Assembly: GCA_963753285.1 (NCBI GenBank) | Contig: CAVWBT010000011.1 | Location: 69,354 to 133,353 of the forward strand | Origin: an uncultured bacterium | GTDB lineage: Bacteria > Actinomycetota > Acidimicrobiia > Spongiisociales > ZC4RG35 | Length of the DNA stretch: 64,000 nt | Reading direction: 5' to 3' | In this document: in pieces, positions 1 to 32,938 of the stretch | How the letters are laid out: each line of letters opens with the position of its first letter | Position numbering within the stretch: the first letter of the stretch is position 1 | The notes under the pieces: generated by a model | Seen by the model: the letters and a program-made list of their open reading frames with translations, nothing else | The model's database searches: none | Told to the model about the DNA's origin: nothing | Translations under genes and position numbers: made by a program

Positions 1-25
1 ACCCACGCCCGTGCGTTGCGGTCCG

Positions 26-973
26 TCATTGCTCCGCCTCGTTTCGCAGGGTGTACCAGAGATATGGGATGACGAGGACCGCCACGCTGAGCAGGAGCAC
101 GATGCCGATCGATGCGCCACGACCGAAGAAGTAGCCGTCGAAGGTCGTGGTCCACATGTAGATGGCGGGGACGTCGAGCGCTACCTGTTTGCCCGCGAGG
201 GCGATGATCAGGTCGAAGACCTTCAGGGAGATGTGGCCGAGGATGATGAGCGCGCTGAGCGTCACTGGGCGGAGCAAAGGCAGGACGACCCTCCGATAGA
301 CCTGCCACTCACCGGCGCCATCGACCCGGGCAGCTTCGCGGAGGCCTTCGGGCACCGCGCGGAGCCCGGCGAGGTAGATCGCCATCGTGTATCCCGACAT
401 CTGCCAGACGGCCGGAAGGGCGACCGCGGCGATACCCCAGGTTGGGGTGGTGTGCCACCGGTTGACGAGTGAGTCCAAACCGATGTTCTCGAACAGCAGG
501 TTCAGCCCGCTTGCGCGATCTCCGACCGCTGGGTTCATCAGCCACCGCCAGACCACGCCAGTGACGATGAACGAGATCGCCATCGGGAAGAGGAACAGAC
601 TCCGATAGAAGCCCTCGGCCCGGATCCCTTTGTCCAGCAACATCGCCAGGCCCAGTCCGATGAACAGGCAGCCGAGCACGAACACGACCGTGAAGATGGC
701 CGTGTTCCTCACGTCGATGGCGAACCGTGGGTCCTTCGCCAGGTTCACATAGTTCTCCGCGCCGACGAACGTGTAGTCGGGGAGGAGTCCCTTCCAACGA
801 CTCACCGAGACTCGGGCTGTCCACGCGATGAACCCATAGACGAATATCAACACCGCGAGGATCGAGGGCAGGACGAGCAACAGCCCGGCTCCGCCCTTCA
901 TGCGCACCGGATTCGGGCGCGGCAGTCTCAGCCTGGGAGCCCTCGATTCGGTCTCGGTTCGGGTTGCCTGCAT
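26..973 (-). CDS. ABC transporter permease (sugar/MalF-UgpA-like binding-protein-dependent permease)
   Basis: The ORF 26..1330 translation has 6 TM segments and the EAA-like permease signature region (YLAGLRAVPEGLREAARVDGAG). Start chosen at the ATG at 973 (the alternative is 901). It lies downstream of the SBP gene on the same strand. Confidence 0.75.
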   Translation of the reverse strand: MQATRTETESRAPRLRLPRPNPVRMKGGAGLLLVLPSILAVLIFVYGFIAWTARVSVSRWKGLLPDYTFVGAENYVNLAKDPRFAIDVRNTAIFTVVFVLGCLFIGLGLAMLLDKGIRAEGFYRSLFLFPMAISFIVTGVVWRWLMNPAVGDRASGLNLLFENIGLDSLVNRWHTTPTWGIAAVALPAVWQMSGYTMAIYLAGLRAVPEGLREAARVDGAGEWQVYRRVVLPLLRPVTLSALIILGHISLKVFDLIIALAGKQVALDVPAIYMWTTTFDGYFFGRGASIGIVLLLSVAVLVIPYLWYTLRNEAEQ

Positions 974-1038
974 CTCTCGATCCCATGTCGGCCCGCCCTC
1001 GAGTCGAGGGCGGGCCGACCGATGAGTTCTCCTCCGAT

Positions 1039-2337
1039 CTAGGCGTTGGGTGATGCTTCGGCGGCAGCAACCAGTGCGCTCTGGAACGCTGCGACGTCCC
1101 TGCTCGCCAGGAACAGGCCAAGCGCCGTGTCGATCTCCGACTTCCACGAGTCGTTGGCGACGACGCCGTGGGTCAGGCTCCCGACGACGGTGTTCGATGC
1201 CCAGTCGTCCATCGCCGACAGCAGGTATTCCCCGTAGAGGCTGCGATCGCCATCGCTGCGGGCAGGGATCGATCCCTTGACGGGGTTGAACGCGTCCTGT
1301 CCCTCGCGGGATCCAGCGACCTTCAACCACTCGATCGCCGCGTCGCGATGCGGGGCGTTCTTGGCCAGCACGAAGCTGTCCGAGAGGAACTGGAAGTTGC
1401 CTCCCGTCCCGGGGACCGGTGCCCAGGTGTACCCCTCCTGTGGGATCGAACCGATCTCACGGAAGAAGCCCTCCTGCCAGTCACCCATGATGTTGAATGC
1501 TGCGGAGCCCTCGATCACCAGCTGGCCGGCGTCCTGCCACGACAGGGCCGAGGCGTCGGAGTTGGTGTAGTCGAGCAGCGTGCCGAAGTTCTCGATCGCG
1601 GTCGCGACCTCGGGTGCGTCCCACGAGCCACTTCCGTCCCACAAGGCGTTGTAGTCATCCGCACCCAGCGTTGCGAGCAACACGGTCTCGAACAGGTGCA
1701 TCGCCGTCCACTGCTCACCCATGGCGAGCGGAGCGTCCATTCCTCCGGCCTCGAGCGTCTCGAGCGCTGCGACGAAGTCATCGAACGACTCGGGCATGTC
1801 GATGCCTGCGTCCGCGAGCACCGTCGGGTTGGCCCAGAGCACGTTCGCGCGGTGGATGTTCACAGGGACCGAGTAGATGTCTCCGTCTTTCGAGATCAGC
1901 GGGATCAGTGTGTCGGGCATGACGTCGAGCCAGCCTTCCTCGTCGTAGAGGAAGTTGAGCGGTTCGATCTGATCCGCGGCGACGTATGTGCCGATCAGCT
2001 CCCAGCCGGCGTGACCCTGCCAGCTGTCTGGCGGGTCGTTCGCCTGGAGTCGCGACGCCAGCACCGCCCGGGCGTTGGTTCCTGCGCCTCCGGCGACCGC
2101 CGAGTTGATGAATTCGATGTCTGGATCGACCTCTCCGAAGACCCCAATCATCGCATCGAGGCCGGCGGCCTCTCCACCGCCCGTCCACCACGAGAACACC
2201 TCGACCTCTCCGGTCATGTCTTCTCCGGCGCCGGTGGTTGTGGTCTCGTCGCTTCCCTCATCGCTCCCGCAACCCATGACGACCATGGCCATGACGAGCA
2301 CGATGGTGAGCCAGCGAAGGCCCTTGTATGACTGCAT
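1039..2337 (-). CDS. ABC transporter substrate-binding lipoprotein (extracellular solute-binding protein family 1, sugar type)
   Basis: Signal peptide plus lipobox (LTIVLVMAMVVMGCGSDEG). Start is the ATG at 2337, preceded by a GGAGGA RBS (ctcgaggaggacacATG). Size and composition are typical of a sugar SBP. Confidence 0.85.
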   Translation of the reverse strand: MQSYKGLRWLTIVLVMAMVVMGCGSDEGSDETTTTGAGEDMTGEVEVFSWWTGGGEAAGLDAMIGVFGEVDPDIEFINSAVAGGAGTNARAVLASRLQANDPPDSWQGHAGWELIGTYVAADQIEPLNFLYDEEGWLDVMPDTLIPLISKDGDIYSVPVNIHRANVLWANPTVLADAGIDMPESFDDFVAALETLEAGGMDAPLAMGEQWTAMHLFETVLLATLGADDYNALWDGSGSWDAPEVATAIENFGTLLDYTNSDASALSWQDAGQLVIEGSAAFNIMGDWQEGFFREIGSIPQEGYTWAPVPGTGGNFQFLSDSFVLAKNAPHRDAAIEWLKVAGSREGQDAFNPVKGSIPARSDGDRSLYGEYLLSAMDDWASNTVVGSLTHGVVANDSWKSEIDTALGLFLASRDVAAFQSALVAAAEASPNA

Positions 2338-2591
2338 GTGTCCTCCTCGAGAATGCGGCGGACGCCAGCGGCGTTCGCCAGTCTCCGCGACCGTATTCCG
2401 GGGCGACCAGCACATACAGTGCCGAAAGTCCGGGGCGGTGGGCGCTGCGTCGGGAAGCGTGACGCCGGCGCGCCGGCGATGCGTGTGAGAAGCGGGCCGG
2501 GTCTCGTCGACCGAGCCCGGACACGCCGCCGAGTCGGGTCCGAGTGGTGGCGGCTGACGGTGTTCTGCGGTAGCCTGTCGTCAGCGCCAAT

Positions 2592-2622
2592 TTGAGACAT
2601 CAGCTTGCGGGCGCTCTACAAA
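2592..2622 (+). promoter_or_regulatory. candidate sigma70-like promoter (TTGAGA, 18 nt spacer, TACAAA) for the homocysteine methyltransferase leader
   Basis: This is the only AT-rich patch in a 388-nt intergenic region. The hexamers resemble TTGACA/TATAAT. Confidence 0.3.
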
Positions 2623-2629
2623 TGCAGCT

Positions 2630-2725
2630 AAAGCGATGACGTGAGAACCGTCCCGCAGACGCTGCCGGACGGTTTCGTGCCGTCTGGTGGGAAATACGCA
2701 AGCGCCACCCGACGGAGGTTGCGCA
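2630..2725 (+). promoter_or_regulatory. structured 5' leader with mutually exclusive hairpins (candidate riboswitch/attenuator) upstream of homocysteine S-methyltransferase
   Basis: CCGTCC-CGCAG-ACG-CTGC-C-GGACGG forms one hairpin. Its GACGG arm can instead pair with the downstream CCGTC in GGACGG-TTTCGTG-CCGTC. A third GACGG sits next to the RBS. No known SAM-I/SAM-IV consensus was recognised. Confidence 0.2.
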
Positions 2726-3739
2726 ATGACCACGAAGACCGAACCCGACTGTGCGAGGTTCGAGCAGCTGCTCTCCGACAAGGGCCTATTGGTCGCCGAC
2801 GGTGCCATGGGAACCACGCTGTTCGAGATGGGACTCGAGAGCGGTGGTTGCCCCGAGCTCCTCAACGTCGAACGACCCGATCTGGTGCGGCGTGTTCACC
2901 AGGCCTTCGTCGACGCCGGCGCCGACATCATTCTCACCAACACGTTCGGTGGGAACCGGCGCCGTCTCGCTCTGCATCGGCTCGAGGGCCGTGTCGCCGA
3001 GCTCAACGCGGCCGCGGTGGGAATCGCAGCGTCCGTTCGGGATGCCGCGGACCGGCCGGTTCTCGTCGCCGGGAGCATCGGCCCGACCGGGGACCTGTTC
3101 GTTCCGCTGGGGCCGCTCACCCACGAGCAGGGCGTCGAGGTGTTCGCCGAGCAGGCGAAGGCGCTGGTCGACGCCGGTGTCGACGTCCTGTGGATCGAGA
3201 CGCTGTCCTCGTGGGAAGAGCTCGGCGCCGCCATCGAAGGATGCTCCGGTCTGGGGATCCCCGTCTCGGCCACGCTGAGCTTCGATACGAACGGCAAGAC
3301 GATGATGGGACTCTCGCCTCGTGAGTTCGGCGAATGGTGGACGAGACAGGACGATCCTCCGACCGCCATCGGGGCGAACTGCGGCATCGGGCCGGGCGAC
3401 GCAGTGGCGGCGGCGTTCGACATCACGTCGGTCGCAAACGACATCCCGGTCATCACGAAGGCGAACTGCGGCGTGCCGCTCTACAAGACCGACGCACCCG
3501 AGTACCCGGTCGGACCCGAGGGCATGTCCGACTACGTCGAGCTGGCCGTGCGGAGCGGTGCGAGGATCATCGGCTCGTGCTGCGGGTCGACACCGGCCCA
3601 CGTGGCCGCCATTCGTGCGGCGGTCGACGCCGGGATCACAGGAGAGAGGCCGGAGCGAGCCGAGATAGAGGAGCGCCTCGAAGCGGCACCGGATGCACCT
3701 CCAAAGGCCCGACGCGCCCGGTCAGGGCGTCGGGGCTGA
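2726..3739 (+). CDS. homocysteine S-methyltransferase family protein (Pfam S-methyl_trans; MmuM/BHMT-like)
   Basis: The translation matches the homocysteine-binding domain, including the GxNCGxGP and C-terminal SCCG zinc-binding cysteine motifs. ATG at 2726 with a GGAGG RBS 9 nt upstream. Confidence 0.85.
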   Translation: MTTKTEPDCARFEQLLSDKGLLVADGAMGTTLFEMGLESGGCPELLNVERPDLVRRVHQAFVDAGADIILTNTFGGNRRRLALHRLEGRVAELNAAAVGIAASVRDAADRPVLVAGSIGPTGDLFVPLGPLTHEQGVEVFAEQAKALVDAGVDVLWIETLSSWEELGAAIEGCSGLGIPVSATLSFDTNGKTMMGLSPREFGEWWTRQDDPPTAIGANCGIGPGDAVAAAFDITSVANDIPVITKANCGVPLYKTDAPEYPVGPEGMSDYVELAVRSGARIIGSCCGSTPAHVAAIRAAVDAGITGERPERAEIEERLEAAPDAPPKARRARSGRRG

Positions 3740-3747
3740 ACGAGGCC

Positions 3748-4635
3748 TCAGCCTCGAGCGGCAGGGTGACGCGAGCGGGATCCGGCTCGCTGAATGAGGC
3801 TGACGATCCCGAATCCGATCACCACCAACACCAGGACGGTGAGTGCGCTGTCATCGGGGCCGAGCAGGCTCCGGTCGACGTCCTGCCACGGCCAGAGTGC
3901 TCTGAGCGACCCGATCATGAGTCCGACGAGGGCTGCCATGGTCCGGTCGTGATTCGTCGAGAGCAGCCTGCGAAGCAGCGTCGCGAACGATCCGAGGCCG
4001 GCGATCGCGCCGAGGGCAAATACCGCGACGTACGCCAGATCGAGGTCTCGCACCGCTTCGAGGGTCGGCTCGTAGAGACCCAGGACGAGCAGGAGGAACG
4101 AGCCGCTCACACCCGGCAGGATCATGGCGCAGATCGCCACGGCTGCACCGGCAAACGCCATCCACAGCGCAGGGTCCTCGATCGTCCCGCTCGGCAGGCC
4201 AGACAGAAAGAAAGCCGGTACCGCGAAGATGAACGCCGTCATCACCGCCGGATATCCCGGGTTGGGAATGCGATTCCACGGGATGGCGATCGACGCGCCG
4301 ACCAGACCCAGGAACAGCGCACGACTCTCGGTCGGATAGCGCTCGAGCAGGTCGGGGACGAAGACCGATGCGATGCCGATTGCGGCTCCGATGCCTCCGA
4401 TGAGCGGAAGGATGAAGCTCCACTGGATGGACCTGAACTGCTCGGCGGCTTGGGAACCGTTTCCCCGCACGGCTGCGAGGATCATGTGGAACCCCTGCGA
4501 GATCGCCGTCAGGAGCTGTTCGTAGATCCCCATGATCAAGGCCATGGTTCCCCCGCTGACCCCAGGAACGGCGTCCGCCGCCCCCATCACCAGGCCTTGG
4601 AGGACATGGCGACCGGGTTGCGTCGCTGAGTCCAT
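3748..4635 (-). CDS. DUF368 family membrane protein
   Basis: GVSGGTMALIMGIY-type motif and multiple TM helices. Start trimmed to the ATG at 4635. Confidence 0.7.
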   Translation of the reverse strand: MDSATQPGRHVLQGLVMGAADAVPGVSGGTMALIMGIYEQLLTAISQGFHMILAAVRGNGSQAAEQFRSIQWSFILPLIGGIGAAIGIASVFVPDLLERYPTESRALFLGLVGASIAIPWNRIPNPGYPAVMTAFIFAVPAFFLSGLPSGTIEDPALWMAFAGAAVAICAMILPGVSGSFLLLVLGLYEPTLEAVRDLDLAYVAVFALGAIAGLGSFATLLRRLLSTNHDRTMAALVGLMIGSLRALWPWQDVDRSLLGPDDSALTVLVLVVIGFGIVSLIQRAGSRSRHPAARG

Positions 4636-4744
4636 CCGAATCAGGTTACGTCGCGCACGGCTGGGCTCTGACCACCCACCGATGGTGCTGCCGGCGGTGA
4701 CCGGCTGTCCGATCCAACCCGCTCGGCTCACCGGCTCCTGGCGG

Positions 4745-5041
4745 TCATCCGCCCGCCATAGCCCCAACGATCAGGTATGGCTCGGTGCCCGCTGCGACTG
4801 GTTCCGGGAGAGGATCATCGGGGTGTTCGTTCGACAGATCCTCCTCGCAGGCGAAGAACCGCACGAACGGGCGGCGGCCACCCGTGGTTCGCTCGCGAAT
4901 CGTTCCGATCAGCACGGGGTGTGCCGTCTCCAGTGCGTCGAGCACCTTCCGCTGGGTCACGGTGCCGTCGACCTGGAGCTCGAGTTCCGGTCCGACACCG
5001 GCCAGCGTGCGGAGGTGATGTGGCAGCCGGATCCTGATCAC
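4745..5041 (-). CDS. MoaD/ThiS-family ubiquitin-like sulfur-carrier-type protein (C-terminal Gly-Gly)
   Basis: 98 aa ending ...VGAMAGG. Its start overlaps the stop of the upstream BNR gene (ATGA). Confidence 0.65.
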
Positions 5042-6153
5042 GAGAGCGTCTGCACCTCGACCGAGTACACGGCTGGGAGGTCACGCACGATCGCCTCCCA
5101 GGTGTCGCCACCGTCCGGCGATGCATAGACCTGCCCACCGGTCGTACCGAAGTAGATGCCGCACGGGTCGTGGCCGTCGACCGCCATCGAGTCGCGCAAC
5201 ACGTTGACGTAGCAGTCCTCCTGTGGAAGGCCGTCGGTGAGGGCCTCCCATTCGTTCCCGCCTGATCGGCTCCGGTAGACACGCAGGCGACCCTCGGGTG
5301 GGTAGTGCTCGGAATCGCTCTTGATCGGAATGACGAACACGGTCTCGGGGTCGTTCGAGTCGATCGCCACCGGGAACCCGAAGTCGGATGGCAGATTGCC
5401 GCTCACCTCGTGCCAGTTGTCTCCGCCGTCGTCCGAGCGCATCACGTCCCAGTGTTTCTGCATGAACAGCACGTCGGGCCTGTCGGGGTGCATGGCGATC
5501 CGATGCACGCAGTGGCCCACCTCCGCGTCCGGATCGGGGAGCTCCGGGTTGGAGACCAGGCCACGGTTGATCGCGTTCCACGTCTCCCCGCCGTCCTCGG
5601 ACCGGAACGCCCCGGCGGCCGAGATGGCCGTGAACATCCGTCCGGGGTCGTTCGGGTCGAGGATGATCGTGTGCAGGCACAACCCGCCGGCACCGGGCTG
5701 CCAGGTGTTGCCGGTGCCGTGACCACGCATACCGGTCAGCTCCCGCCAGTTCTCGCCTCCGTCGGTCGACTTGAACAGCGCGGCGTCCTCGACTCCGGCG
5801 AACAGGGTGTCTGGATCGTTCGGTGAGGGCTCGAGGTGCCACACCTTGTGGAACTCCCATGGGCGAGGCGTGCCGTCGTACCAGAGGTGGGTGCCGGGAT
5901 CGCCTGCGTAGCTGAAGTCGTTGCCGACCGGTTCCCAGGTGGCGCCGCCGTCGTCGGAACGCTGGATCAGCTGACCGAACCAGCCGGTCCACTGGGCGGC
6001 ATAGAGCCGGTTGGGGTCTACGGGCGAACCGGTGATGTGGTGGACCTCCCATCCGGGGAAGTGGGGTCCCGCCACAGACCAGGTCATGCGGTCCTTCGAC
6101 GTGAGAACGAACGCACCTTTCTTGGTGCCGACCAGCACCCTGACACCGACCAT
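5038..6153 (-). CDS. BNR/Asp-box repeat protein (sialidase/Ycf48-like beta-propeller fold)
   Basis: Repeated S-x-D-x-G-x-T-W Asp-box motifs ([40 protein letters not shown]). ATG at 6153 with an AAAGGA RBS. Confidence 0.7.
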
Positions 6154-6298
6154 GCCTGATCCTTTCTCGGGCCATCCGAGGGTAGGCATGGGTGGGTGTC
6201 CGATGCCGCCGAGAAACGATGCTTGCGCTCCGGCCGCCAGGCGGACCCTCTGAGTGTGCAGCGGACACCCGCCGAGATCCATCCGATCAGACGGTCAC

Positions 6299-6700
6299 TC
6301 AGTCGAGACCGAGCGCCTGGCGGGTCCTCTTCGTGAGGCCTGCGACGACCAGCCGGTAGGAGTCCTCGAGCCAGTCCTCCAACTCGAAGTCGGGGACCTC
6401 GGCGATCTTGACCCGGTTCCAGTGCCGCTCGTGCATGTACGGGGCGCGATCGACGGCGTCGGGGAAGATCGCACGCTGTTCGTCGATGACGTCCGGCAGG
6501 GCTTTGATGGAGGCGGTGTGCGGGGGGTCCTCCGACAGCGTGCAGAACATCTTGCCGCCGACCTTGTAGACCCGCGAATCGGGTCCGAACGGGTACTCGA
6601 GCACACTGCCCGGGAAGCTCTCTGCCAGGGCGACAAACTCGTCGAAGGTCACGTTCGGAAGGCTATACCCTCGACGGATGCAGGGATCGGTCACCGCCAT
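6299..6700 (-). CDS. MmcQ/YjbR family DNA-binding protein
   Basis: 133-aa translation typical of the MmcQ/YjbR family. The start may instead be the GTG at 6694. Confidence 0.6.
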   Translation of the reverse strand: MAVTDPCIRRGYSLPNVTFDEFVALAESFPGSVLEYPFGPDSRVYKVGGKMFCTLSEDPPHTASIKALPDVIDEQRAIFPDAVDRAPYMHERHWNRVKIAEVPDFELEDWLEDSYRLVVAGLTKRTRQALGLD

Positions 6701-7133
6701 TCACATCGCCCCCGAATATGGCAGACCAGTCGAGCCGGTAGAGCGGGTCGAGGCGGTCGCCGGGAAGGGGCTGTGTGGCGACCGCTATTTCGGAACCAGG
6801 CGTCAGGTCACGTTGGTCGCGACCGGTGAGTTGCAGGCTGCCGCGGCCCAGTTGGGTGTAGAGGTGATCGACGGTGGTGCGACCCGTAGAAACATCACGG
6901 TCGATCTGCCCTCACTCCCGAGGACTCATGGGGCACGCATCGAGATAGGGGAGGTGCTGTTCGAGGTGTGGCGTGATTGCGCCCCGTGCGAGGTGATGGA
7001 GTCGGCGGTCGGGCCCGGAGCGCGCGCTGCACTCAGGGATCGGGCGGGAGTCTCCGCAACGGTCGTTGCCGGAGGCGTCATCCGGATCGGCGATCCGGTT
7101 CACCTGGGTCAGTCAGGTCGAGCGGTCCTCTAG
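6678..7133 (+). CDS. MOSC domain-containing protein
   Basis: 150-aa beta-barrel MOSC-like translation with a conserved Cys near the C-terminus (CAPCEVM). Confidence 0.65.
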   Translation: MQGSVTAIHIAPEYGRPVEPVERVEAVAGKGLCGDRYFGTRRQVTLVATGELQAAAAQLGVEVIDGGATRRNITVDLPSLPRTHGARIEIGEVLFEVWRDCAPCEVMESAVGPGARAALRDRAGVSATVVAGGVIRIGDPVHLGQSGRAVL

Positions 7134-7206
7134 ATCATCCCGCGGAGGCCCGTCAATGGTCTTGGCCGCGATCACAGGGGCGCCGCCCGCCTCGGGCGTT
7201 CACGAT

Positions 7207-7262
7207 TCCGAACCCAGGGTTGCTGACGACACAGGATGTCGATTTCAGGTCAAGGTTCGCCG
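7207..7262. repeat. GC-rich palindromic REP-like element, copy A (GCGAACCCAGGGTTGCTGACGACA...TCAGGTCAAGGTTCGCC)
   Basis: About 55 bp with terminal inverted motifs CGAACC/GGTTCG. Highly similar copies are at 8706-8760 (inverted orientation) and 32884-32938. Confidence 0.6.
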
Positions 7263-8630
7263 TCAGCCCGCACTCAGCGTGACCGGGTATTCACGGACGC
7301 CGATCTGCGCGCCGTCCTTGGCGGACGTGTCGAAGGTGATCACGGCTCCACGCTGGGTCGAGTCGAGCGGATACGGGATCGTCACGTCGAACGACGTCCA
7401 CGGGATTCCGCCGGGGCTGATCACCTGGGGGCCGTTCGCCAGCACCGGAACTTCGGCGATGATGAGCCCGTCTGCATCGACGACGACCACCTGGAACTGC
7501 GCTTCGAAGGCGAACGTTCGACCGACCAACCGCACCGGGTTGGCTGCAGTGCCTCCGAAGAGAGGTTGGTCCACGAAGACCATCGGCAGCACTCCGGCGT
7601 CGAGGAAGGCCTCCCGGGTGAACGGAGCCTCGATCCCGCCGACCTCGATCAATGGGATCGAGTCGGCGACGACTTCGACCCGGTCGACAGTTGGGAACTG
7701 GGTCAGCGTGAACACGACCTGAGCGACACTCCGCACTGTTGCCGGGCCGAATCCGGTCAGGCGGACGGTCGCCGTGTCTCCGCTGATCACGATGGACGAC
7801 ACCCTGGCGCTCGAGGGGATCGCAGTCGACATCGCGGGGATCGATGCCGACTCGCCTGGCGTGGGGCCTGCCAGCAGCTGCGTCATCGCGTCGGTTGCGG
7901 GCGTGAGCGACCAGGGCACGTCCCGGGCCACCGGGGCGAGGTAGGGGCCCGGGCCCAGCGGCTCGTCGCCGAGCGAGTCGAGATACAGATACGCCGCGAC
8001 GGTTCGCGTCCGCGGAAGGGGGATGATCGGCGTGAGACCGAGGGCTCGGACGAGCATCGACGCCATCTCGGCTCGGCTGATCGGGGTGTCCGGTCTGAAG
8101 GTGCCGTCGGTGTAGCCGAGGGAGATGGCGTTTTCGGCGATGGTGTCGATGTTGGGTTCGTGGACGTTGCCGTCGTCGTCTGCGAACCAGTCGCGGGTTG
8201 CGGGTTCGAGCTCGGGGAGGGCCCTGGCGAGGAAGCTCGCCATCTCGGCCCGCGTGACAGTCACCTCCGGTCTGAAGGTGCCGTCGGTGTAGCCGAGGGT
8301 GATGGCGTTTTCGGCGATGGTGTCGATGTTGGGTTCGTGGACGTTGCCGTCGTCGTCTGCGAACCAGTCGCGGGTTGCGGGTTCGAGCTCGGGCAGCGCC
8401 CTGGCGAGGAAGCTCGCCATCTGGCCCCTCGTGACCGGGTCATCCGGGCAGTACCGATCTGTGTCGCAGCCCTGCGTGATCCCGGTGGCGACGAGGGCCT
8501 CGATCGCCGGCTCGTGGGCGCTTCCGTCGTCGTCGATGAACGTGCCTCCAGGTGGAAGTTCCTGGGCCGCCGCCGGGATGAACGGAATGGCCAGTGCAAC
8601 GGCGAGGGCGATCGTCGCGAGTCGTTTCAT
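7263..8630 (-). CDS. secreted cell-surface protein: three SLH-like repeats, then a GerMN domain and a C-terminal Gmad2 Ig-like domain
   Basis: Signal peptide MKRLATIALAVALAIPFIPAAAQE. The ATG at 8630 has a strong GGGAGGAGG RBS. The repeats carry the SLH signature (DGxF.P....TRA.MASFLARAL). Confidence 0.8.
   Translation of the reverse strand: MKRLATIALAVALAIPFIPAAAQELPPGGTFIDDDGSAHEPAIEALVATGITQGCDTDRYCPDDPVTRGQMASFLARALPELEPATRDWFADDDGNVHEPNIDTIAENAITLGYTDGTFRPEVTVTRAEMASFLARALPELEPATRDWFADDDGNVHEPNIDTIAENAISLGYTDGTFRPDTPISRAEMASMLVRALGLTPIIPLPRTRTVAAYLYLDSLGDEPLGPGPYLAPVARDVPWSLTPATDAMTQLLAGPTPGESASIPAMSTAIPSSARVSSIVISGDTATVRLTGFGPATVRSVAQVVFTLTQFPTVDRVEVVADSIPLIEVGGIEAPFTREAFLDAGVLPMVFVDQPLFGGTAANPVRLVGRTFAFEAQFQVVVVDADGLIIAEVPVLANGPQVISPGGIPWTSFDVTIPYPLDSTQRGAVITFDTSAKDGAQIGVREYPVTLSAG
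8092..8445. repeat. intragenic tandem duplication (2 x 177 bp, about 97% identical) encoding two SLH repeats
   Basis: Near-identical 177-bp units begin at 8092 and 8269. Each encodes LPELEPATRDWFADDDGNVHEPNIDTIAENAI(T/S)LGYTDGTFRP... Confidence 0.85.
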
Positions 8631-8705
8631 GCTCTCCTCCTCCCGACGGTGTACCAGCCGACTCGAAGCCACGACAGGGTCTCTGTTCCCTGCCGCCATC
8701 GTGGC

Positions 8706-8760
8706 GAACCTTGACCTGAGATATACAACAGATGTCGTCAGCAACCCTGGGTTCGCCTTG
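8706..8760. repeat. GC-rich palindromic REP-like element, copy B (inverted relative to copy A)
   Basis: Its reverse complement matches 7207-7262 over about 50 bp. It sits between the LLM stop and the SLH gene start. Confidence 0.6.
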
Positions 8761-8766
8761 GGCGGT

Positions 8767-9648
8767 TCAGGCGTTGTGGATCGCTTGGACCACCGGGGCG
8801 AGGGTTTCGATCGACTCGATCGTGATCGGGTCGACGACCAATTGGACGTGGTCGACCAGACCGGTGAACTCGAGCAGGCGGTCGACGATCTCCGTCGTGC
8901 CACCCGAGATCGGAGTGCTGCGCTTCCTCGGCGTGCGTTCTCCGCCACCGGGGAGTTCGACGAACAGCGCGGCCGACTTCACGACGTCGGCGGGATCACG
9001 TGCTGCCTCGACCAGCGCGGCGTCGAGCTGGTCGGCGAGTTTGGCGAGCTTGTCGGGTCGGTTGCCGAAGTTGGCGAACCACTCGTTCCACCAGTCCATC
9101 TCGCCCGCTGTGATCTCGAGCATCCTCGGCCCGGTCGAGCCGATCATGATCGGCAGGTCCGGACGTGCGGGCGGGATGAGGACGTTGTCGTCCTGGGTGA
9201 AGAACTCCCCGGAGAAACTCGACCGGCCCGTGCGGACGAGGTCTCTGATGATGGCGAACTCCTCTTCGAACCGGCTGACCCGGCGGTCATAGGGGACCCC
9301 GTAGGCGTCGAATTCACGTTCGTTCCAGCCCGAGCCCAAACCTAGGATCAGCCGCCCTCCGCTGATCTCGTCGACGGTCGATGCCATCTTCGCGAGCACG
9401 GCCGGGTTGCGGAATCCGGTAGGCGAGACCAGAGGCCCCAGTAGGACTCGATCGGTGACCGCGGCCAGCGCGGCGAGCATCGACCAGCACTCCCACGGTC
9501 CCAGATCCTCGTCCTTCTGCCGATACAGGAAGTGATCACCGAGCCAGATCGAGGCGTATCCGGCTTCTTCCGCCATTTGGGCCATGGCGCGGTACTCGCT
9601 CCAGGGGACGAACCGTTCTACCTCGGGAAGCTGGATGCCAATCTGCAT
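8767..9648 (-). CDS. LLM-class (luciferase-like) F420-dependent oxidoreductase
   Basis: N-terminus MQIGIQLPEVE... and TIM-barrel luciferase-like motifs. Confidence 0.8.
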   Translation of the reverse strand: MQIGIQLPEVERFVPWSEYRAMAQMAEEAGYASIWLGDHFLYRQKDEDLGPWECWSMLAALAAVTDRVLLGPLVSPTGFRNPAVLAKMASTVDEISGGRLILGLGSGWNEREFDAYGVPYDRRVSRFEEEFAIIRDLVRTGRSSFSGEFFTQDDNVLIPPARPDLPIMIGSTGPRMLEITAGEMDWWNEWFANFGNRPDKLAKLADQLDAALVEAARDPADVVKSAALFVELPGGGERTPRKRSTPISGGTTEIVDRLLEFTGLVDHVQLVVDPITIESIETLAPVVQAIHNA

Positions 9649-9683
9649 CGGGGACAGTCAAGCAGACCTGGAACCGCCGACGA

Positions 9684-10676
9684 TCAGATCGGCTTGTGCC
9701 ATGTGAGCCACATCGACTCGACCTCGAAGCCGAGCGACTCGTAGAGCCGGAACGCTCCTGTCGGGTTCTCGGCGTGGACGCCCAGCGCAGCCTCCGTCAT
9801 TCCGGCGTCGCGAAGCGCCCGGAAGCTCGCTGCGATGAGCGCCGAGGCGACACCTTGCTTGCGCCACTTGCGGCCGGTCGAGATGTATTCGGTCCACCCG
9901 CGCTTCTTCCCCAGTGCCTCGTTCTCTTCGTGATTGATGAACGACTTGACCTGTCCGGCGACTTCGTCACCGTCCCAGGCGACCCGCCACAACGAGATGT
10001 CGCGAAGGGGATCCTCGAGGAACCGCTGGTAGTCGTTCTCGGTCGGCTCGGACCAGCCCCAGTGGTCTCGGAACGCCGCCTGATCAGCCTCCCAGATCTG
10101 ACGGAGTTGATCCTCGGTGACCGGTCGGATCTCCAGACCGTCCGGCAACCGGTGATCCGGTAGTTCGCCTTCGATGCTCCTAGCCATCGAGGCGCCATAG
10201 GTCTCGACCTCGAATCCGAGCGACTCGTACCACGCACAGACATCCGGTTCCAGGTCTCGTTCACTGAAGCCTTCCAGCACCTTGCCCGTCGTGGATTCGT
10301 GGTCGGCTGCGAGTTCCAGATTCCGGGCGATCGCCGCTTCCGCCAACGCCATCCACAAGCCGGTGTCCCGGAACGCCGGATCGATGTGGGGGACCATCCA
10401 GTAGCGGGTGGGTTCGCCGGGCACGTCGGCCCATTCGACTCTCACGTATCCCGCCAACGATCCGTCGACGGCGTCCACCATGACCATGTCGTCGTCGGGG
10501 TTGCAGTTGTCGAGGTGGGCGTAGGACGTGTCGACGCTCGCCGTCGTGACGCGTTCGGGTAGCCCGATGGCCTCGTTCCATCGGTTCAGCAGTCCGGCCA
10601 TGGCTCGGTGGTCGCCTGCGCCTGCATATAGGCGGGCCGTGAGCTCAGGCATGCCGGTGAGGTCTGGATTCATCAT
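9684..10676 (-). CDS. GNAT family N-acetyltransferase with two GNAT domains (mycothiol synthase MshD-like architecture)
   Basis: About 330 aa with tandem acetyltransferase-like halves. The C-terminal half has the QGVASALI acetyl-CoA motif. Confidence 0.65.
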   Translation of the reverse strand: MMNPDLTGMPELTARLYAGAGDHRAMAGLLNRWNEAIGLPERVTTASVDTSYAHLDNCNPDDDMVMVDAVDGSLAGYVRVEWADVPGEPTRYWMVPHIDPAFRDTGLWMALAEAAIARNLELAADHESTTGKVLEGFSERDLEPDVCAWYESLGFEVETYGASMARSIEGELPDHRLPDGLEIRPVTEDQLRQIWEADQAAFRDHWGWSEPTENDYQRFLEDPLRDISLWRVAWDGDEVAGQVKSFINHEENEALGKKRGWTEYISTGRKWRKQGVASALIAASFRALRDAGMTEAALGVHAENPTGAFRLYESLGFEVESMWLTWHKPI

Positions 10677-10717
10677 CGGCTTCGACGGTATCGACCCATC
10701 CGCGACGATGCTGGGGA

Positions 10718-12475
10718 TTAACCGTCGGTACGGGCAAGGGTCGCCGATTCCCAGCCGCGCACGGCGTTCAGTCTGGCGAGTTGCGGCGCGGCCCGGAGCT
10801 CGTCGACGGTCACCGATCGTTCGATCAGATCACCCGTCGCGAGCATGGCCGCGCGTCGGACGCCTGCGAGCAGGCCGTCACGGACCGGGGGAGTGACCCA
10901 CATCCCGTCGATCAGGACCGCCAGATTGCCGATCGTGGTCTCGGTGACACGCCCTGCCTCGTTGACCAGCACCACGTCGTCGGCTTCGGGGACCCGTCGT
11001 GCGGCCTGCTCGTAGACCGAGCGGCTGGTCGTCTTGTGGAAGAGCAGCGGATCGTGGGAGTCGATCCTGTCGGTGTCGATCGCCAGCATCAGGGGCCGTT
11101 CTGACGGCGCAGGCAGTGGTTCGGTCTCGACGGTGATCCACCCGATGCGATCGACGAGCAGCCTCACCTTCATCGCCTGCTCTGCGCCCCGGGTGGCCCG
11201 GTCGAGGCCGACTCGCACCTCGGCCGGGTCGAGCGGCACGTCGAAGTACCACGCCGAGTCGGACAGTCGCGAGAGATGCCTCGCGAGCTCGTAGAAGCCG
11301 CTCTCGGGGTCCCAGCGCATGGTTTCGATCAACTGGAGATCGGCGGATCGGCGTTCCAGCACCTGGGTCTTGAGCAGCGCTTCGGCGTACTCGTCTCCGG
11401 GCGTCGAGTCATACGTGATTCCACCGCCTGTTCCGTACATCGCCAGCTTCTGTTCGCGATCGATCAGCACCGTTCGGATGGCGACGTTGAACGCCCATTC
11501 GGGGCCGGCCGCCCCGGGCCCTCCGAACCCGACGGTGCCGCAGTACACACCGCGAGGCGTGGTCTCGAGGCGGGAGATGATCTCCATCGTCGAGACCTTC
11601 GGGGCGCCGGTGATCGACGCACACGGGAAGAGCGCTCCGAAGACGTCGACCAGCCCCACGTTCGGCAGCGGTCGCCCCTGGACCGTCGACGTCATCTGCC
11701 AGACCGTGTCGTATTTCTCGGTCGAGAACAGCTCGGGGACCTCGACCGAGCCGATCCGGCTGATACGCCCCAGGTCGTTGCGGACCATGTCGACGATCAT
11801 CAGGTTCTCGGCCCGGTTCTTCTCCGAGCCGAAGAGACGCTGTCGCCGCTCCTCGTCGTCGGCCAGGGTCGTTCCCCGATCGGTCGTGCCCTTCATCGGC
11901 CTGGAGACGATGCGATCGTGGCGCCACTCGAAGAAGAGCTCAGGCGATGCAGACGCGACCGCCCATCTCCCGGCATCGATGAAGCTCCCATATCCGCACG
12001 TCTGCGACGAGGCGAGGTCGGCATAGAGCGCCAGCGCATCGCCGTCGAACGGCGCGTCGAGTCGAAAGGTGTGGTTGACCTGATAGGTGTGCCCCTGCCG
12101 GATCTGTCGGCGGATCTCGGAGATGGCGGCGTGGTGGCGGGCTTCGTCGGTGGACGGAGTCCATGGTCCCAGGTCGAAGCTGCCAACGTGCGGAGTCGTT
12201 GCGACCCGGCGGTCGAACACGGCGAACCAGGCGAGCGGGAGATCTTCGACGTTCGTGCCGGATACGTCCCGTACCACTAGCGACCGGTCGAAGGCGGGGG
12301 CAGCCTCGTAGCTGACGAATCCCGCCACCCACTTGTGTCGTGCGACGGCGCGCTCGACCGCTTCGAGGACGCCGACGACCTCGTCGATGTGGGTGGTCGA
12401 GAGGATCTCGATCGGCTCGTCGAGTTGGAACGATCGACGGCGGTGCGGCCTGAGGTCGTCGAAGCGGGCGAACAA
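10718..12475 (-). CDS. pabB: aminodeoxychorismate synthase component I fused to aminodeoxychorismate lyase (PabB-PabC)
   Basis: The N-terminal chorismate-binding domain carries the PIKGT-like/anthranilate synthase motifs (SRPMKGTTDRG, GAPK). The C-terminal roughly 150 aa is a class IV aminotransferase/ADC lyase-like region. Confidence 0.8.
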   Translation of the reverse strand: MFARFDDLRPHRRRSFQLDEPIEILSTTHIDEVVGVLEAVERAVARHKWVAGFVSYEAAPAFDRSLVVRDVSGTNVEDLPLAWFAVFDRRVATTPHVGSFDLGPWTPSTDEARHHAAISEIRRQIRQGHTYQVNHTFRLDAPFDGDALALYADLASSQTCGYGSFIDAGRWAVASASPELFFEWRHDRIVSRPMKGTTDRGTTLADDEERRQRLFGSEKNRAENLMIVDMVRNDLGRISRIGSVEVPELFSTEKYDTVWQMTSTVQGRPLPNVGLVDVFGALFPCASITGAPKVSTMEIISRLETTPRGVYCGTVGFGGPGAAGPEWAFNVAIRTVLIDREQKLAMYGTGGGITYDSTPGDEYAEALLKTQVLERRSADLQLIETMRWDPESGFYELARHLSRLSDSAWYFDVPLDPAEVRVGLDRATRGAEQAMKVRLLVDRIGWITVETEPLPAPSERPLMLAIDTDRIDSHDPLLFHKTTSRSVYEQAARRVPEADDVVLVNEAGRVTETTIGNLAVLIDGMWVTPPVRDGLLAGVRRAAMLATGDLIERSVTVDELRAAPQLARLNAVRGWESATLARTDG

Positions 12476-12482
12476 CGGATCC

Positions 12483-13478
12483 TCAGCGAGTCGTTCGGGC
12501 GGGTGCCGGGCCCGGACCGGACATCGAGAGGAGTTCGACGATGTGACCGATCATTGCACGCGTGGTGTCTTCGCTGCGCGGCCAGGGTGAGTGCCCGCGG
12601 CATGCCTGAGCGAACGCCTCGAGCATGAGACGGTACGGATCGGCTCCACCGGTGACCACCCGGTCCCGGGATTGGCCGTGTCGTTGAATCAGGTAGTGGT
12701 CGTCGTTCACCGAAGGGGTGTAGGCGCGGTCGACGACGATGGTCCCGCTCGTTCCGCGGATCTCCAGGAGTTGGCGCTCCGGCATCTCGAACGAGCACAG
12801 CGCCGTGGCAGTGGCGGTCTCGGTTGCAAGCATCACCGAGGTCGTGACGTCGACCCCGGAGGGTCCGAGGTGCGAAGTCACGTTGCGAACGCCGGGATCG
12901 TCGAACAACTCGTGGATCGGGGACAGCGTGTAGATGCCCACATCCCACAGCGCTCCACCCCCATGATCCGGCGCCCATCGGTAGTTGTCCGAATGGTTCG
13001 GTCCGATCGTGAAGCTGAACTCCGAGCGGATCGAGCGGAGGTCGCCGATCGCGCCCGATCGCACGTCGTCGAGGACGGCCGTCGACCGGGGATGAAACGG
13101 AGTCATGAAGGCCTCGGCGAGCAGCACGCCGGCGGCTCGGCACGCCGTGTACATGGAAGCGACGGCATCGGGGGTCGTCGCCAACGGCTTCTCGCACAGC
13201 ACGTGCTTGCCGGCCGCCGCGGCTCGCTCGGTCCACGGTCGATGCAGGTCGTTGGGCAGCGGGATGTAGACGGCCTCGACTGCCGGGTCGTCGAGCACGG
13301 CCTCGTACGAGCTGCGCGCCACACCGGAGAGCTCGGAAGGGATGTGAGAGTTCGAAGCCGCAGCCACGATTTCGACCTCGTTCGAGGCGGCCACTGCCGG
13401 GTAGATCGCTGCTCGCGCCACGAACGAGTTGGCGCCGATCACACCCAGCCGAAGCGGATCAGTCAAGGGTGATGACAC
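12483..13478 (-). CDS. Gfo/Idh/MocA family oxidoreductase
   Basis: N-terminal Rossmann fold LRLGVIGANSFVARAAIYPA. The EKP motif is present. Confidence 0.85.
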   Translation of the reverse strand: MSSPLTDPLRLGVIGANSFVARAAIYPAVAASNEVEIVAAASNSHIPSELSGVARSSYEAVLDDPAVEAVYIPLPNDLHRPWTERAAAAGKHVLCEKPLATTPDAVASMYTACRAAGVLLAEAFMTPFHPRSTAVLDDVRSGAIGDLRSIRSEFSFTIGPNHSDNYRWAPDHGGGALWDVGIYTLSPIHELFDDPGVRNVTSHLGPSGVDVTTSVMLATETATATALCSFEMPERQLLEIRGTSGTIVVDRAYTPSVNDDHYLIQRHGQSRDRVVTGGADPYRLMLEAFAQACRGHSPWPRSEDTTRAMIGHIVELLSMSGPGPAPARTTR

Positions 13479-14835
13479 TTCCGCCCTCGGCAGCGGAGCG
13501 ATGTCCGGCCTCGAGGACCCGGACCACGTCGCGCGTCGACTCAGGGGTCACGGCGAGGGGTTCGCCGAGCAGCAGGTGGTCGGCGAGGTTCGCATGGAAC
13601 CCCCACCCGGGGTGGTCGGCCGGCTTGACCATCGTGGTCGAGCCGTCGAACCGCTGTACCTCGAGGTCGACCGGAGCCTCGGCGTGGTGGGACTCTTCGC
13701 GGACGAATCCGCGTCCGGGTTCCAGCTGTTCGGTGACGAGGGGTCGGTAGTGGCCCTCGAGCGTCCCCGACTCGCCCTGCACGTAGAACTTGGGTCTACG
13801 GATCGCCGCGATGTCGGACTGGCGGAATGTCGCCTCGCGCCCATCCGGCCACATCATGTGCAGCGTCAGCTGGTCCAGGTTGGTGACGTCGTGCCACACA
13901 CGCTTGTGGCCGACGCACCGGATCGTGGTGGGCATCGAGCCGTACAGCTGGATGATCCAGTCGACGTGGTGGCTTCCCCAGTCGTAGATCGCTCCGCCGG
14001 AGATCGACGCTTCGCTGTGCCATGCCCGGCACGGGTGACCGAACCCGCCGACGAACGTCTCGATGTTGAACACGTTGCCGAGTTGACCGGACTCGACGAC
14101 CGATCGAAGGGCCAGGTAATCCCGGTCCCAACGTCGCGACTGGTGGACCGTCACGAGCAGACTCCGCTCGTCCGCCAGCGAGATCAGCTGATTGGCGTCT
14201 TCGGTGGTGAGACACATCGGTTTCTCGACGACCGCGTGGATTCCGTGCTCGAGCAGTTCTCTGGCGATCGGAGCGTGGTACACCGGCGGAGTGGCCACGA
14301 TGGCGAGATCGATGTCACCGTCCTCGATCATCTCGGTCACGGCGGCGTAGGTGCGGATGCCCGTGAAGTCGGCTTCGGCGGCTTTCCGCCGTTCATCGCT
14401 CGTGTCGACGGCGGCGACGAATTCGAGTCCGGCGGTCTCCGAGCACGCCAGGCCGTGGGCGTATCCCATGCCGCCGAACGGCCCGTATCCGATCACACCG
14501 ACCGACAGGGTTTCGGCCGTCGATCTCCCGGTGGCTGCGCGATCGAGATAGGTCAGCAGCTCCGGACTGGTTTGAATCGCCTGGAGATCGATCCCACTGA
14601 CGACCCGTGTCTGGTCGCCGTCGGTTCGCTCCAGAAGCACGACCCGATCGGCGAAGCCGATGTTCACGTGTGCGAGGATCCGGTCCCCGTCGCGTGGTGT
14701 CAGTTCGGAGATCTCAGCGGTCACCGGCACCTGATCCGGGAGTCTGGTGGCGGCCGTGCGGTCGGTGAGCTTCACGAACCATTCGGTTCGGGGGAAGGTG
14801 GGACCGGTCGTGTCGAGTGTGATCGGGGGATTCAT
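13459..14835 (-). CDS. Gfo/Idh/MocA family oxidoreductase with an N-terminal extension of about 100 aa
   Basis: VGVIGYGPFGGMGYAHG...VEKP motifs. It overlaps the downstream gene by 20 nt. Confidence 0.8.
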   Translation of the reverse strand: MNPPITLDTTGPTFPRTEWFVKLTDRTAATRLPDQVPVTAEISELTPRDGDRILAHVNIGFADRVVLLERTDGDQTRVVSGIDLQAIQTSPELLTYLDRAATGRSTAETLSVGVIGYGPFGGMGYAHGLACSETAGLEFVAAVDTSDERRKAAEADFTGIRTYAAVTEMIEDGDIDLAIVATPPVYHAPIARELLEHGIHAVVEKPMCLTTEDANQLISLADERSLLVTVHQSRRWDRDYLALRSVVESGQLGNVFNIETFVGGFGHPCRAWHSEASISGGAIYDWGSHHVDWIIQLYGSMPTTIRCVGHKRVWHDVTNLDQLTLHMMWPDGREATFRQSDIAAIRRPKFYVQGESGTLEGHYRPLVTEQLEPGRGFVREESHHAEAPVDLEVQRFDGSTTMVKPADHPGWGFHANLADHLLLGEPLAVTPESTRDVVRVLEAGHRSAAEGGSVITLD

Positions 14836-14923
14836 GTGGTTCGGACCTCGGCGGCAGCGTCACACAACGGTATCGGCGTGCCCGCCCTAGTGGCTACCCG
14901 AGCGCCCCGGTAGCCTCGTTCGC

Positions 14924-15604
14924 ATGCAACAGATCGCAGCCGGAATCCACCAGGTCTCCAAAGGCACCAACGCATTCATCGTCGACGGTGACGACGGCGT
15001 CGTCCTCATCGACACCGGTCTCCCGAAGCGGCACGGCGCGATCCTCGACGGTGTGAAGGCGATCGGGCGTGAGCCCGAGGACATCGCTGCGATCGTGATC
15101 ACCCACGGCCATGCCGACCACGCCGGCGGAGCTGCGGCGCTCAAGCGGGAGTCGGGCGCAGCGTTGATCGCATCGGAGACCGATGCGCCGGTGGTTCGGG
15201 GCGAGGCGCCGGCTCCTGCGCCGCCGATCATGGATTTCCCCGTGTTGCGCCGTCTCGTCGGCCTGGTCCCGACAGCAGAGGGGGTCTCGGTGGATCACGC
15301 GCTCGTCGAGGGCCCGGTGCCGGTCGTTTCCGATCTCACTGCCGTTCCCACACCCGGCCACACCCCCGGGCACATCTCACTCCTCCTGGACCGCAACGGA
15401 GGCGTGCTGTTCGCCGGGGACTCGGCCATGGCGACGCGGTCGGGTGGCGTGCAGCGGGGATTCATGAACCGGAGATCGGCGACGTTCGACTCGAGCCTCC
15501 GCAGGATGGCCCAGCTCGAGTTCGAGATCGCCTGTTTCGGGCATTCTGCCGCCATCGTCGGCGGCGCGAGCGGCTCGTTCCGGGCCTTCGTCGCTGGGCT
15601 CTGA
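14924..15604 (+). CDS. MBL-fold metallo-hydrolase
   Basis: THGHADHAGG motif. Confidence 0.8.
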   Translation: MQQIAAGIHQVSKGTNAFIVDGDDGVVLIDTGLPKRHGAILDGVKAIGREPEDIAAIVITHGHADHAGGAAALKRESGAALIASETDAPVVRGEAPAPAPPIMDFPVLRRLVGLVPTAEGVSVDHALVEGPVPVVSDLTAVPTPGHTPGHISLLLDRNGGVLFAGDSAMATRSGGVQRGFMNRRSATFDSSLRRMAQLEFEIACFGHSAAIVGGASGSFRAFVAGL

Positions 15605-15605
15605 T

Positions 15606-16556
15606 TCACCGAGTGTCGGCGCGGGCGGCGCGCAACACCTCGTCGATCGGTGACGTGGCGAGGTCGCCGAGTTCCTGGACGTAGTCGTAGCCGAACCGGC
15701 CCTTGATGCACAGGTTGCCGTGGGTGACGGAATGGTCGAGCGGTGAGGTGACCTTGACGATCCGGTTGTCCTGGACGTGGAGTTCGAGGTTGCAGCCGAT
15801 GGCGCAGTACGAGCACACGGTGCGGGTCACCGTCTGCTCGTCTTCGCGCCAGATGCCCGCCCGGCGCATCTCGTATTCGGAACGGAACTGCAGCGCACCC
15901 GTCGGGCACACGCCGACGCAGTTGCCGCAGAAGACGCAGGCCGAGTCGGTGAGGGGAGTGTCGAGCTCGGTCGAGATCCTGGCGTCGAAGCCGCGTCCGG
16001 CGACTGCAATGGCAAAGGTGTTCTGAGCCTCCTCACCGCACGCCTGGACGCACTTGTAGCAGAGGATGCAGCTGGCGTAGTCCCGGATGTACAGGGCGTT
16101 GTCCACCTTGACGGGCTGGTCGACGCTCTCGGCGGTCGTGCCGTCGGGCTCTGGGTGGTGGCCGGCGTGACGGTGATCCCTGTCGTCGTGCGGACCGGAC
16201 GGTGGCCCGTAGCGAGACGAGTCGACGCCGTAACGCTCCATCCAAGGAGCCATCTCGCTGTTCGAGAGGTCGGCGGAGGAGTCGAGGAACTCCAGGACCA
16301 TCTTGCGGGAGTGGCGGACCCGTTCGGAGTCGGTGTCGATGACCATCCCGTCTTCGACCTTGCGCGAGCATGACGGGACGAGCGTCCGGGATCCTTCGAC
16401 CTCCACCACACACACCCGACAGGCATTGACCGGCGTGAGCGTCGACACCCAACACAGGGTCGGCTGCTCGCTCCCGATCTCCCGACACGCGTCGAGGATG
16501 GTCGACCCTTCGGCCACGTCGACCCGGGTGCCATCGATGGTCACCGAGACGGTCAT
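15606..16556 (-). CDS. NuoG/HylA-like iron-sulfur subunit: 2Fe-2S ferredoxin, 4Fe-4S clusters and a C-terminal molybdopterin-oxidoreductase Fe4S4 domain. This is the detached N-terminal module of formate dehydrogenase alpha.
   Basis: Cys clusters CxxC...C and CILCYKCVQAC, CVFCGNCVGVCP, CSYCAIGCNL. It ends just after the Fe4S4 domain. ATG at 16556. Confidence 0.8.
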   Translation of the reverse strand: MTVSVTIDGTRVDVAEGSTILDACREIGSEQPTLCWVSTLTPVNACRVCVVEVEGSRTLVPSCSRKVEDGMVIDTDSERVRHSRKMVLEFLDSSADLSNSEMAPWMERYGVDSSRYGPPSGPHDDRDHRHAGHHPEPDGTTAESVDQPVKVDNALYIRDYASCILCYKCVQACGEEAQNTFAIAVAGRGFDARISTELDTPLTDSACVFCGNCVGVCPTGALQFRSEYEMRRAGIWREDEQTVTRTVCSYCAIGCNLELHVQDNRIVKVTSPLDHSVTHGNLCIKGRFGYDYVQELGDLATSPIDEVLRAARADTR

Positions 16557-16563
16557 GCTCGGT

Positions 16564-16598
16564 CCACGTTCCACGTTGCACGTTTCACGTTCCACGTC
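16564..16598. repeat. heptanucleotide tandem repeat, 5 x (N)CACGTT (coding-strand sense GGACGTG/GAACGTG/AAACGTG/CAACGTG/GAACGTG), 8-42 nt upstream of the hylA-like start codon
   Basis: Read directly from ggtCCACGTTcCACGTTgCACGTTtCACGTTcCACGTcc. Confidence 0.8.
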
Positions 16599-16933
16599 CT
16601 CTCGGCAGCTGCGTCGATGGAACCTGCAGCAGGTAGGCGTCTCCGGCTTCGGTGCGTGTGGCCCGGCTCCTGTGCCCGGGAGACCCGGCCGGAGAACGGG
16701 ACTGGTTGGGCCCAACTGTGCGAGGGCGCGCCGGTAGGTGATGTCGGGTGTCGGGGTGGTGCGTTGCGGGCGAGGCAAGCCTCGCCCCTACACCTCGTCG
16801 TCCGCCGTACCGACGACCGACGACCGACGATCGGCAACTTGCGTCGCAGGGGCCGTCCAGGGGTAGGGGCGGCCGCCTGCGGCACCCGCAGCCCGGGCCG
16901 TCCGACCCACCGAACCCGGTCCATCGTCAAGCT

Positions 16934-16964
16934 TCTGTCACGCATCTGTCATCTGTCATCTGTC
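16934..16964. repeat. heptanucleotide tandem repeat TCTGTCA x4 (one interrupted), overlapping the stop codon of the NuoEF-like gene
   Basis: Read directly: tctgtcacgcatctgtcatctgtcatctgtc. Confidence 0.75.
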
Positions 16965-26943: not shown

Positions 26944-27025
26944 TCTCGGAGGATTCAACCACAACGATGGCCGCCCTGTCCGGGGCGGCCATCGTTGTTT
27001 GTCTCCCCTTCGGGACGCCAAGCGT

Positions 27026-32883: not shown

Positions 32884-32938
32884 CGAACCCAGGGTTCCTG
32901 ACGACACCTGGTGTCGATCTCGGCGCAAGGTTCGGACG
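32884..32938. repeat. GC-rich palindromic REP-like element, copy C
   Basis: GCGAACCCAGGGTTCCTGACGACACCTGGTGTCGATCTCGGCGCAAGGTTCGG, related to 7207-7262. Confidence 0.55.

Follow-up and report, generated by a model that had tools for sequence, protein, structure and literature searches.

Introduction

REPs measure 20–40 bp, have a stem of 5–13 bp and carry an unpaired GTAG or CGTC tag (PMC3733652), and those of E. coli act as terminators or stabilisers in the 3'UTRs of tandem and convergent gene pairs (bioRxiv 10.64898/2026.03.23.713779). We compare with them a palindrome repeated in a window of 64,000 nt (by which we mean the whole stretch of DNA that was analysed), whose affiliation with Acidimicrobiia follows from its protein homologs. 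Several other described systems bear on such a locus. A REPIN consists of two inverted REPs that form one long hairpin, and it is mobilised by a RAYT. Hairpin-only ("I-shaped") terminators have been proposed for high-GC Actinobacteria, and whether they terminate is disputed. Invertons such as the fimS and hin types usually enclose a promoter between short inverted repeats, and a dedicated recombinase is encoded close by.

The three copies of the element in the window are homologous and have been inherited vertically at fixed intergenic positions. On balance, and with confidence only slightly above even, we favour the explanation that they represent one lineage-restricted, REP-like family whose hairpins end or stabilise the upstream mRNA.

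Three copies of a palindromic element

The copies and the genes adjacent to them are as follows.

6678 to 7133, plus strand: MOSC-domain gene (Pfam), convergent with the SLH gene
7209 to 7261, plus strand: element copy c1, 80.6 bits with the covariance model, 1 nt from the TGA of the SLH gene
7263 to 8630, minus strand: SLH gene, encoding a secreted protein with three SLH repeats plus Germane (GerMN) and Gmad2 domains (translation, Pfam, Acidimicrobiia homologs)
8703 to 8755, minus strand: element copy c2, 80 bits, between the luciferase-like and SLH genes
8767 to 9648, minus strand: luciferase-like monooxygenase gene (Pfam, synteny), whose stop codon precedes c2
32402 to 32881, plus strand: flavin-reductase gene, likely start GTG at 32402 after GAGGAG, whose stop codon precedes c3
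32884 to 32936, plus strand: element copy c3, 75.9 bits, between the flavin-reductase gene and the 407-aa gene
33051 to 34274, plus strand: gene for a 407-aa protein, Acidimicrobiia-specific and without a Pfam family, downstream of c3

The sequence-only reading of this DNA had placed an inverted pair of about 50 bp at 7207–7262 and 8706–8760 and a third copy at 32884–32938. The pair is real, with limits a few bases away from those proposed, and the third copy was recovered as well; furthermore, the pair does bracket the whole SLH gene plus its GGAGGAGG ribosome-binding site, as had been stated. A repeat search described the pair as 53-nt arms that are 87% complementary and 1441 nt apart. Copies c1 and c2 agree at 46/53 positions, the longest stretch without a mismatch being 23 nt, and c3 matches each of them at 43/53. 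For searches of complete genomes the element can be written as the pattern CGAACCCAGSGTTSC. When up to three mismatches were allowed, the 23-nt core pattern was found at exactly three sites in the window and at none in 100 shuffles. The covariance model, run over the 64 kb with filters off, gave 76–81 bits for the three copies and 12 bits for the next match, and neither this search nor nhmmer detected a fourth copy in the 64 kb. Each copy can be oriented, as the model gives about 80 bits for one strand and about 9 for the other.

Position relative to stop codons

The earlier description of the copies as lying directly after stop codons proved accurate. Copy c1 is situated between convergent stops, at 1 nt from the TGA of the SLH gene and 75 nt from the TAG of the MOSC gene; c2 lies 9–11 nt past the TGA of the luciferase-like gene and 73 nt ahead of the ATG of the SLH gene, and c3 lies 1–2 nt past the TGA of the flavin-reductase gene and 114 nt ahead of the GTG of the 407-aa gene. 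The corresponding gaps in related sequences are 11 and 3 nt in L003, 0 nt in L012 and 3 nt in both L002 and L015. Every copy is thus found 0–11 nt after a stop codon, in either orientation and at about five or six independent sites, and the spacing to the downstream start codon is variable, about 70 nt at the least and well over 100 nt at the most. All these copies, namely the three of the window and those of L002, L003, L004, L006, L012 and L015, are located between genes; arm-like units within a gene were seen only in L001.

Other small structures occur near the copies. The MOSC gene has a hairpin of its own (CGCCCG-CCT-CGGGCG, at about 7185–7199) ahead of c1. Between c2 and the start codon of the SLH gene, a small hairpin CAGGG-N8-CCCTG is found at 8675–8692; its core GACCCTGTCG is kept in L003 and L006, and the hairpin may belong to the leader or promoter region of the SLH gene. 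At 32975–33051, ahead of the 407-aa gene, the motif GGGTCCTCCTCCTCTGGAC can pair with the ribosome-binding region CAGAGGTGACTCG. Neither L012 nor L013 shows a change in the ribosome-binding block, the motif is nearly invariant (one or two substitutions, in L013), and the sequence between the two is not conserved; the leader may be of the SD-sequestering type. The 407-aa family has many homologs, all in Acidimicrobiia, sometimes with two members per contig (L013, 1398–5394), and in the window (33051–35706) the gene directly after the 407-aa gene encodes 422 aa, is thus of comparable size and likewise lacks a Pfam family.

Palindrome and predicted fold

The consensus of about 52 nt reads CGAACCCAGGGTTsCTGACGACA - loop - TGTCGATyTCrGnnCAAGGTTCG. 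The copies share an interrupted hairpin fold that consists of an outer stem CGAACC/GGTTCG, two short middle stems, an inner stem CGACA/TGTCG and a loop of 3–5 nt. With this fold 82% of the alignment cells pair, and the value falls to 22–41% when the partners are slid. The inner stem varies between conserved outer boxes: besides CGACA/TGTCG we found CCACA/TGTGG in L003, CCACGA/TTGTGG in L015 and an unrelated GCGCGCC/GGCGCGC in L006, and one middle pair has changed from G-U to C-G in L015. Covariation was not significant, the score being reached by 82 of 500 shuffles of an alignment with 11 distinct sequences, and therefore the structure rests mainly on palindromy. The folding strand could not be read from counts of G-U and A-C pairs, which were uninformative. 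As to stability, the window copies do not exceed their shuffles (z = -0.5 to -2.6); the copy in L002 forms a perfect 23-bp stem of -56.6 kcal/mol (z = -11.5).

The initial suggestion of a terminator survives in part. The copies are repeated, REP-like imperfect extragenic palindromes after stop codons, for which a role at the mRNA 3' end is most plausible, but the canonical intrinsic terminator was rejected, since no T-run, and hence no U-tract after the hairpin, follows any copy on either strand. A consensus terminator scan of positions 1–20000 did not list c1 or c2, and canonical hairpin-plus-T-run terminators were fewer in the consensus scan than expected by chance. Two unique perfect hairpins with 16-bp arms, at 987–1019 and 26961–26998, lie about 18–20 nt after stop codons, the second being followed by TTTGT, and these are probably ordinary terminators.

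Conservation at the SLH locus

An exact look-up of the SLH protein returned no record, and the comparison drew on loci that encode its homologs. The order and orientation of the luciferase-like and SLH genes in the window are shared by three relatives, L003, L004 and L006. DNA identity upstream of the SLH gene is 96% with L004 and about 77% with L003. In both of these the element occurs at both flanks of the SLH gene with the same relative orientations as in the window, and the counterpart of c2 in L004 shows no difference, whereas that in L003 has 80% identity. L006 keeps the outer boxes in its downstream copy, where the inner hairpin has been swapped for an unrelated G+C-rich one, and the copy upstream is degenerate. 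In all three relatives a convergent gene follows the SLH gene; it is a MOSC gene in L003 only.

In L005 and L007–L011, at about 60% protein identity, the element and any equivalent hairpin are absent. As no hairpin exists at the equivalent sites in L005 and L007, a hairpin there is not a general requirement. L005 has fragments of a luciferase-like gene just upstream of its SLH gene in the same orientation and without the element, which indicates that the place of the SLH gene predates the repeats.

The sequence-only reading had considered that c1–c2 recombination might invert the surface-protein gene or that the pair might mark a mobile module. We judge both very improbable indeed. A whole gene is indeed bracketed by an inverted pair of 53 nt that includes 23 nt of perfect match, the gene product is a surface protein with a signal peptide, near-identical genomes differ in a mosaic fashion in the C-terminal part of that gene, and synteny is lost at the outer edge of c1; in this there is a likeness to invertons, in which an inverted-repeat pair flanks a DNA segment beside a surface-protein function. 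Unlike in invertons, however, a whole gene is flanked and a single orientation is seen, namely in the window, L003, L004 and L006, and no site-specific recombinase was found among the annotated neighbours (BNR/sortilin, YjbR, MOSC, luciferase-like, GNAT, PabB-like and GFO_IDH_MocA, by Pfam). An inversion would carry along the ribosome-binding site, the 73-nt leader and any promoter of the gene's own, and consequently offers no obvious switch. Against a mobile module stand the kept gene order and orientation in L003, L004 and L006 and the gene position in L005 that predates the repeats. Moreover, the repeat also occurs singly elsewhere (c3, L002, L015), and the mosaic breakpoints do not coincide with the repeats.

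This mosaic was noticed when window positions 7186–8400 were compared with positions 4650–5820 of L004. Identity is 96% from upstream to the SLH repeats, about 78% in the GerMN/Gmad2 part (8060–7340) and 95% over the last roughly 80 nt of the SLH gene plus c1, and beyond the outer edge of c1 the two sequences are unrelated. Beyond c1, both L004 and L006 have unrelated genes. These identities make the SLH gene mosaic and its downstream flank variable, with breakpoints inside the gene. Either allelic replacement beside a variable flank or a MAG misjoin at a repeat would account for the mosaic, and the break of homology at c1 could be such a metagenome misjoin. The SLH gene also contains a tandem duplication of 177 nt (8040–8216 and 8217–8393, 89% identical), which adds one SLH-type repeat and makes the protein 455 aa long, as against 396 aa in the orthologs of L003 and L004.

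The c3 locus and distribution in databases

At the c3 locus, the element of the L012 ortholog (91% identity) follows the flavin-reductase stop with a gap of 0 nt. L013, an 80% ortholog, is without c3 and presents no clean empty site. In L015 (76%), a diverged copy lies past the stop of a different upstream gene and before the homologous downstream gene.

The exact 22-mer core occurred at one locus in 185,579 genomes (L001), at one in 241 million metagenome records (L002) and nowhere in a viral collection. L002, a sediment contig, has a perfect palindrome with 23-bp arms. In L001, an Acidimicrobiia MAG, the left arm is present at 2043–2140 as three in-frame 36-nt tandem units (SPEPRVPDxTGR), which are situated in the linker that joins the subunit-binding domain of an E2 acyltransferase to its catalytic domain. 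These units resemble a palindromic element that has become part of a gene, and the palindromic elements of Rickettsia are likewise found inside coding sequence. At gathering thresholds no Rfam family was found anywhere in the window, and at E <= 10 none overlapped the element. BLAST of the element against plasmid and phage collections returned only chance-level matches, and thus no IS or plasmid parent was found.

This distribution bears on the view that the copies are selfish or relic elements, MITE- or REPIN-like and without a host function, which were inserted in tolerant gene-end spacers and are now decaying or are kept uniform by gene conversion. We regard this as unlikely. It agrees with the patchy occurrence (absence from L005, L007–L011 and L013, presence in L012 and L015), with a palindrome that is perfect elsewhere, in L002, and imperfect in the window, with the in-frame units in the E2 linker of L001, which recall the Rickettsia case, and with synteny that varies just beyond c1. 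It is opposed by the low-looking copy number together with the lack of any transposase seen, by the finding of the exact 22-mer at one locus in each of two large public collections, by the absence of target-site duplications and of a clean empty site, and by a level of conservation, described next, that exceeds that of near-neutral sites at the same divergence.

Sequence constraint

The degree of conservation was compared between the window and L003. Across four flanking genes, identity at third codon positions is 59%. The element itself is represented by two orthologous pairs, which agree at 41/51 and 43/51 positions, that is, 84/102 (82%; binomial P = 5e-7 against the third positions), and this is about the level of first and second codon positions. 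Within these pairs no change has occurred in the left 19 nt (38/38), a stretch that is identical in all copies of the window, L003 and L004. Both observations indicate constraint on the element. Changes have accumulated in the right arm and have broken pairs; the contrast with the invariant left arm suggests that a specific sequence is recognised and that the role is not purely structural. The left arm holds a 13-bp palindrome, GAACCCAGGGTTC, which is perfect in c3, L001 and L002.

On this basis the element may be primarily a binding site, with a putative dedicated protein (a regulator, a nucleoid protein or a RAYT-like transposase) on the DNA or RNA of the left arm including GAACCCAGGGTTC, and with the hairpin secondary; the two sites flanking the SLH gene could then act jointly, for example by looping or insulation. 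The unchanged left 19 nt beside a diverging right arm, the palindromic nature of the 13-mer itself and the location of c2 and c3 upstream of co-directional genes are in favour of this proposal. We nevertheless consider it rather unlikely: the whole 52 nt is conserved, as expected for copied repeats and unlike operators, c1 lies between two gene ends where there is nothing to regulate, stand-alone 13-mer sites in the 64 kb do not exceed chance, the left arm is altered in L015 and L006, and no candidate protein was found.

Comparison with known classes of elements

The element resembles REPs in being an extragenic, repeated, imperfect palindrome that can fold into a stem-loop, located at gene ends in tandem and convergent pairs and in both orientations, without a U-tract, and in that the expected RNA hairpin would block exonucleases or attenuate read-through (PMC3733652; 10.64898/2026.03.23.713779). 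It departs from them in size, with about 52 nt, 19 modelled pairs and, in L002, 23-bp arms. The tag also differs, since GTAG is absent, and CGTC is found 1–3 nt after c1, c3 and their orthologs and is missing after c2, the L003 copies and L015. Whereas REPs number from tens to thousands per genome, we found three copies in 64 kb, and the exact core is nearly absent from public data. The element comes from Actinomycetota (class Acidimicrobiia), which the 2013 survey of REPs does not mention (PMC3733652). No transposase was present among the 13 Pfam-scanned proteins (12 of the window and one of L004) or the genes annotated in L003.

With REPINs the element shares vertical persistence across species, and its perfect form in L002 consists of two inverted 13-nt GAACCCAGGGTTC sub-palindromes and a spacer in one hairpin; it differs in being much smaller, in having a degenerate right-hand unit in all window copies, and in that no RAYT was seen. 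The "I-shaped" terminators are similar in that a hairpin directly past a stop codon, without a T-run, is found in a high-GC actinobacterial genome with few canonical terminators. Those terminators, however, are unique sequences, whereas the present element is repeated, has an invariant arm and an interrupted stem, and is not especially stable.

Several other candidates were rejected. The inverted ends CGAACC/GGTTCG could be those of a MITE, but there is no flanking direct duplication, nor a clean empty site in L013. For an integron attC site, the ends GCGAACC...GGTTCGC misfit the R''/R' cores (RYYYAAC...GTTRRRY), the copies are inverted rather than direct, and the flanking genes are syntenic core genes. 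A SECIS or read-through signal after UGA does not agree with the TAG in L003, the reversed orientation of c1 and the fact that no ORF continues; a LexA box does not agree with the spacing, which is GAAC-N5-GTTC and not N4; and a promoter inside the element had no consensus match.

Probable role and significance

If the copies are mRNA 3'-end hairpins, as we prefer to think, the element would be transcribed as the end of the upstream mRNA and would fold into a long interrupted hairpin. At c2 and c3 this hairpin would limit read-through into the next gene, and/or it would shield the upstream message from 3'-5' exonucleases; at c1, between convergent genes, it could serve both messages. REPs of E. 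coli act in this manner, and the unique hairpins that this genome places after stops (987–1019 and 26961–26998), where canonical terminators are few, also speak for this view. The inverted pair would then be a by-product, one copy having come to lie after the luciferase-like gene and one after the SLH gene, in opposite orientations by chance, and c1 and c2 together would delimit the SLH gene as a transcription unit of its own.

A more specific proposal is that of an Acidimicrobiia-specific 3'-end or insulator signal, so far undescribed, with its own putative binding protein, or of a miniature REPIN-like system with a dedicated transposase. We know of no such REPIN-like system described in Actinomycetota. 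Selective maintenance and specific recognition would be argued for by the 19-nt arm, which is invariant while about 41% of synonymous sites have changed, and by the docking within 11 nt of stop codons. We consider the proposal quite improbable; if specific recognition were true, the conserved pair would set the surface-protein gene apart as an insulated, autonomous unit.

Taken as an mRNA 3'-end hairpin, the element is ordinary in kind and is an addition to the broad class of extragenic palindromes. It brings no new kind of mechanism, and a phase-variable or mobile surface-protein cassette is removed from the interpretation of this locus. To our knowledge, such elements have not been described in Acidimicrobiia, and transcription termination and mRNA-end formation are essentially unstudied in this class. 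The stop-codon docking and the invariant arm make the element a handy entry point for Term-seq or for protein pull-down, and, if our reading is right, a REP-like 3'-end element would be added for an uncultured, high-GC actinobacterial class.
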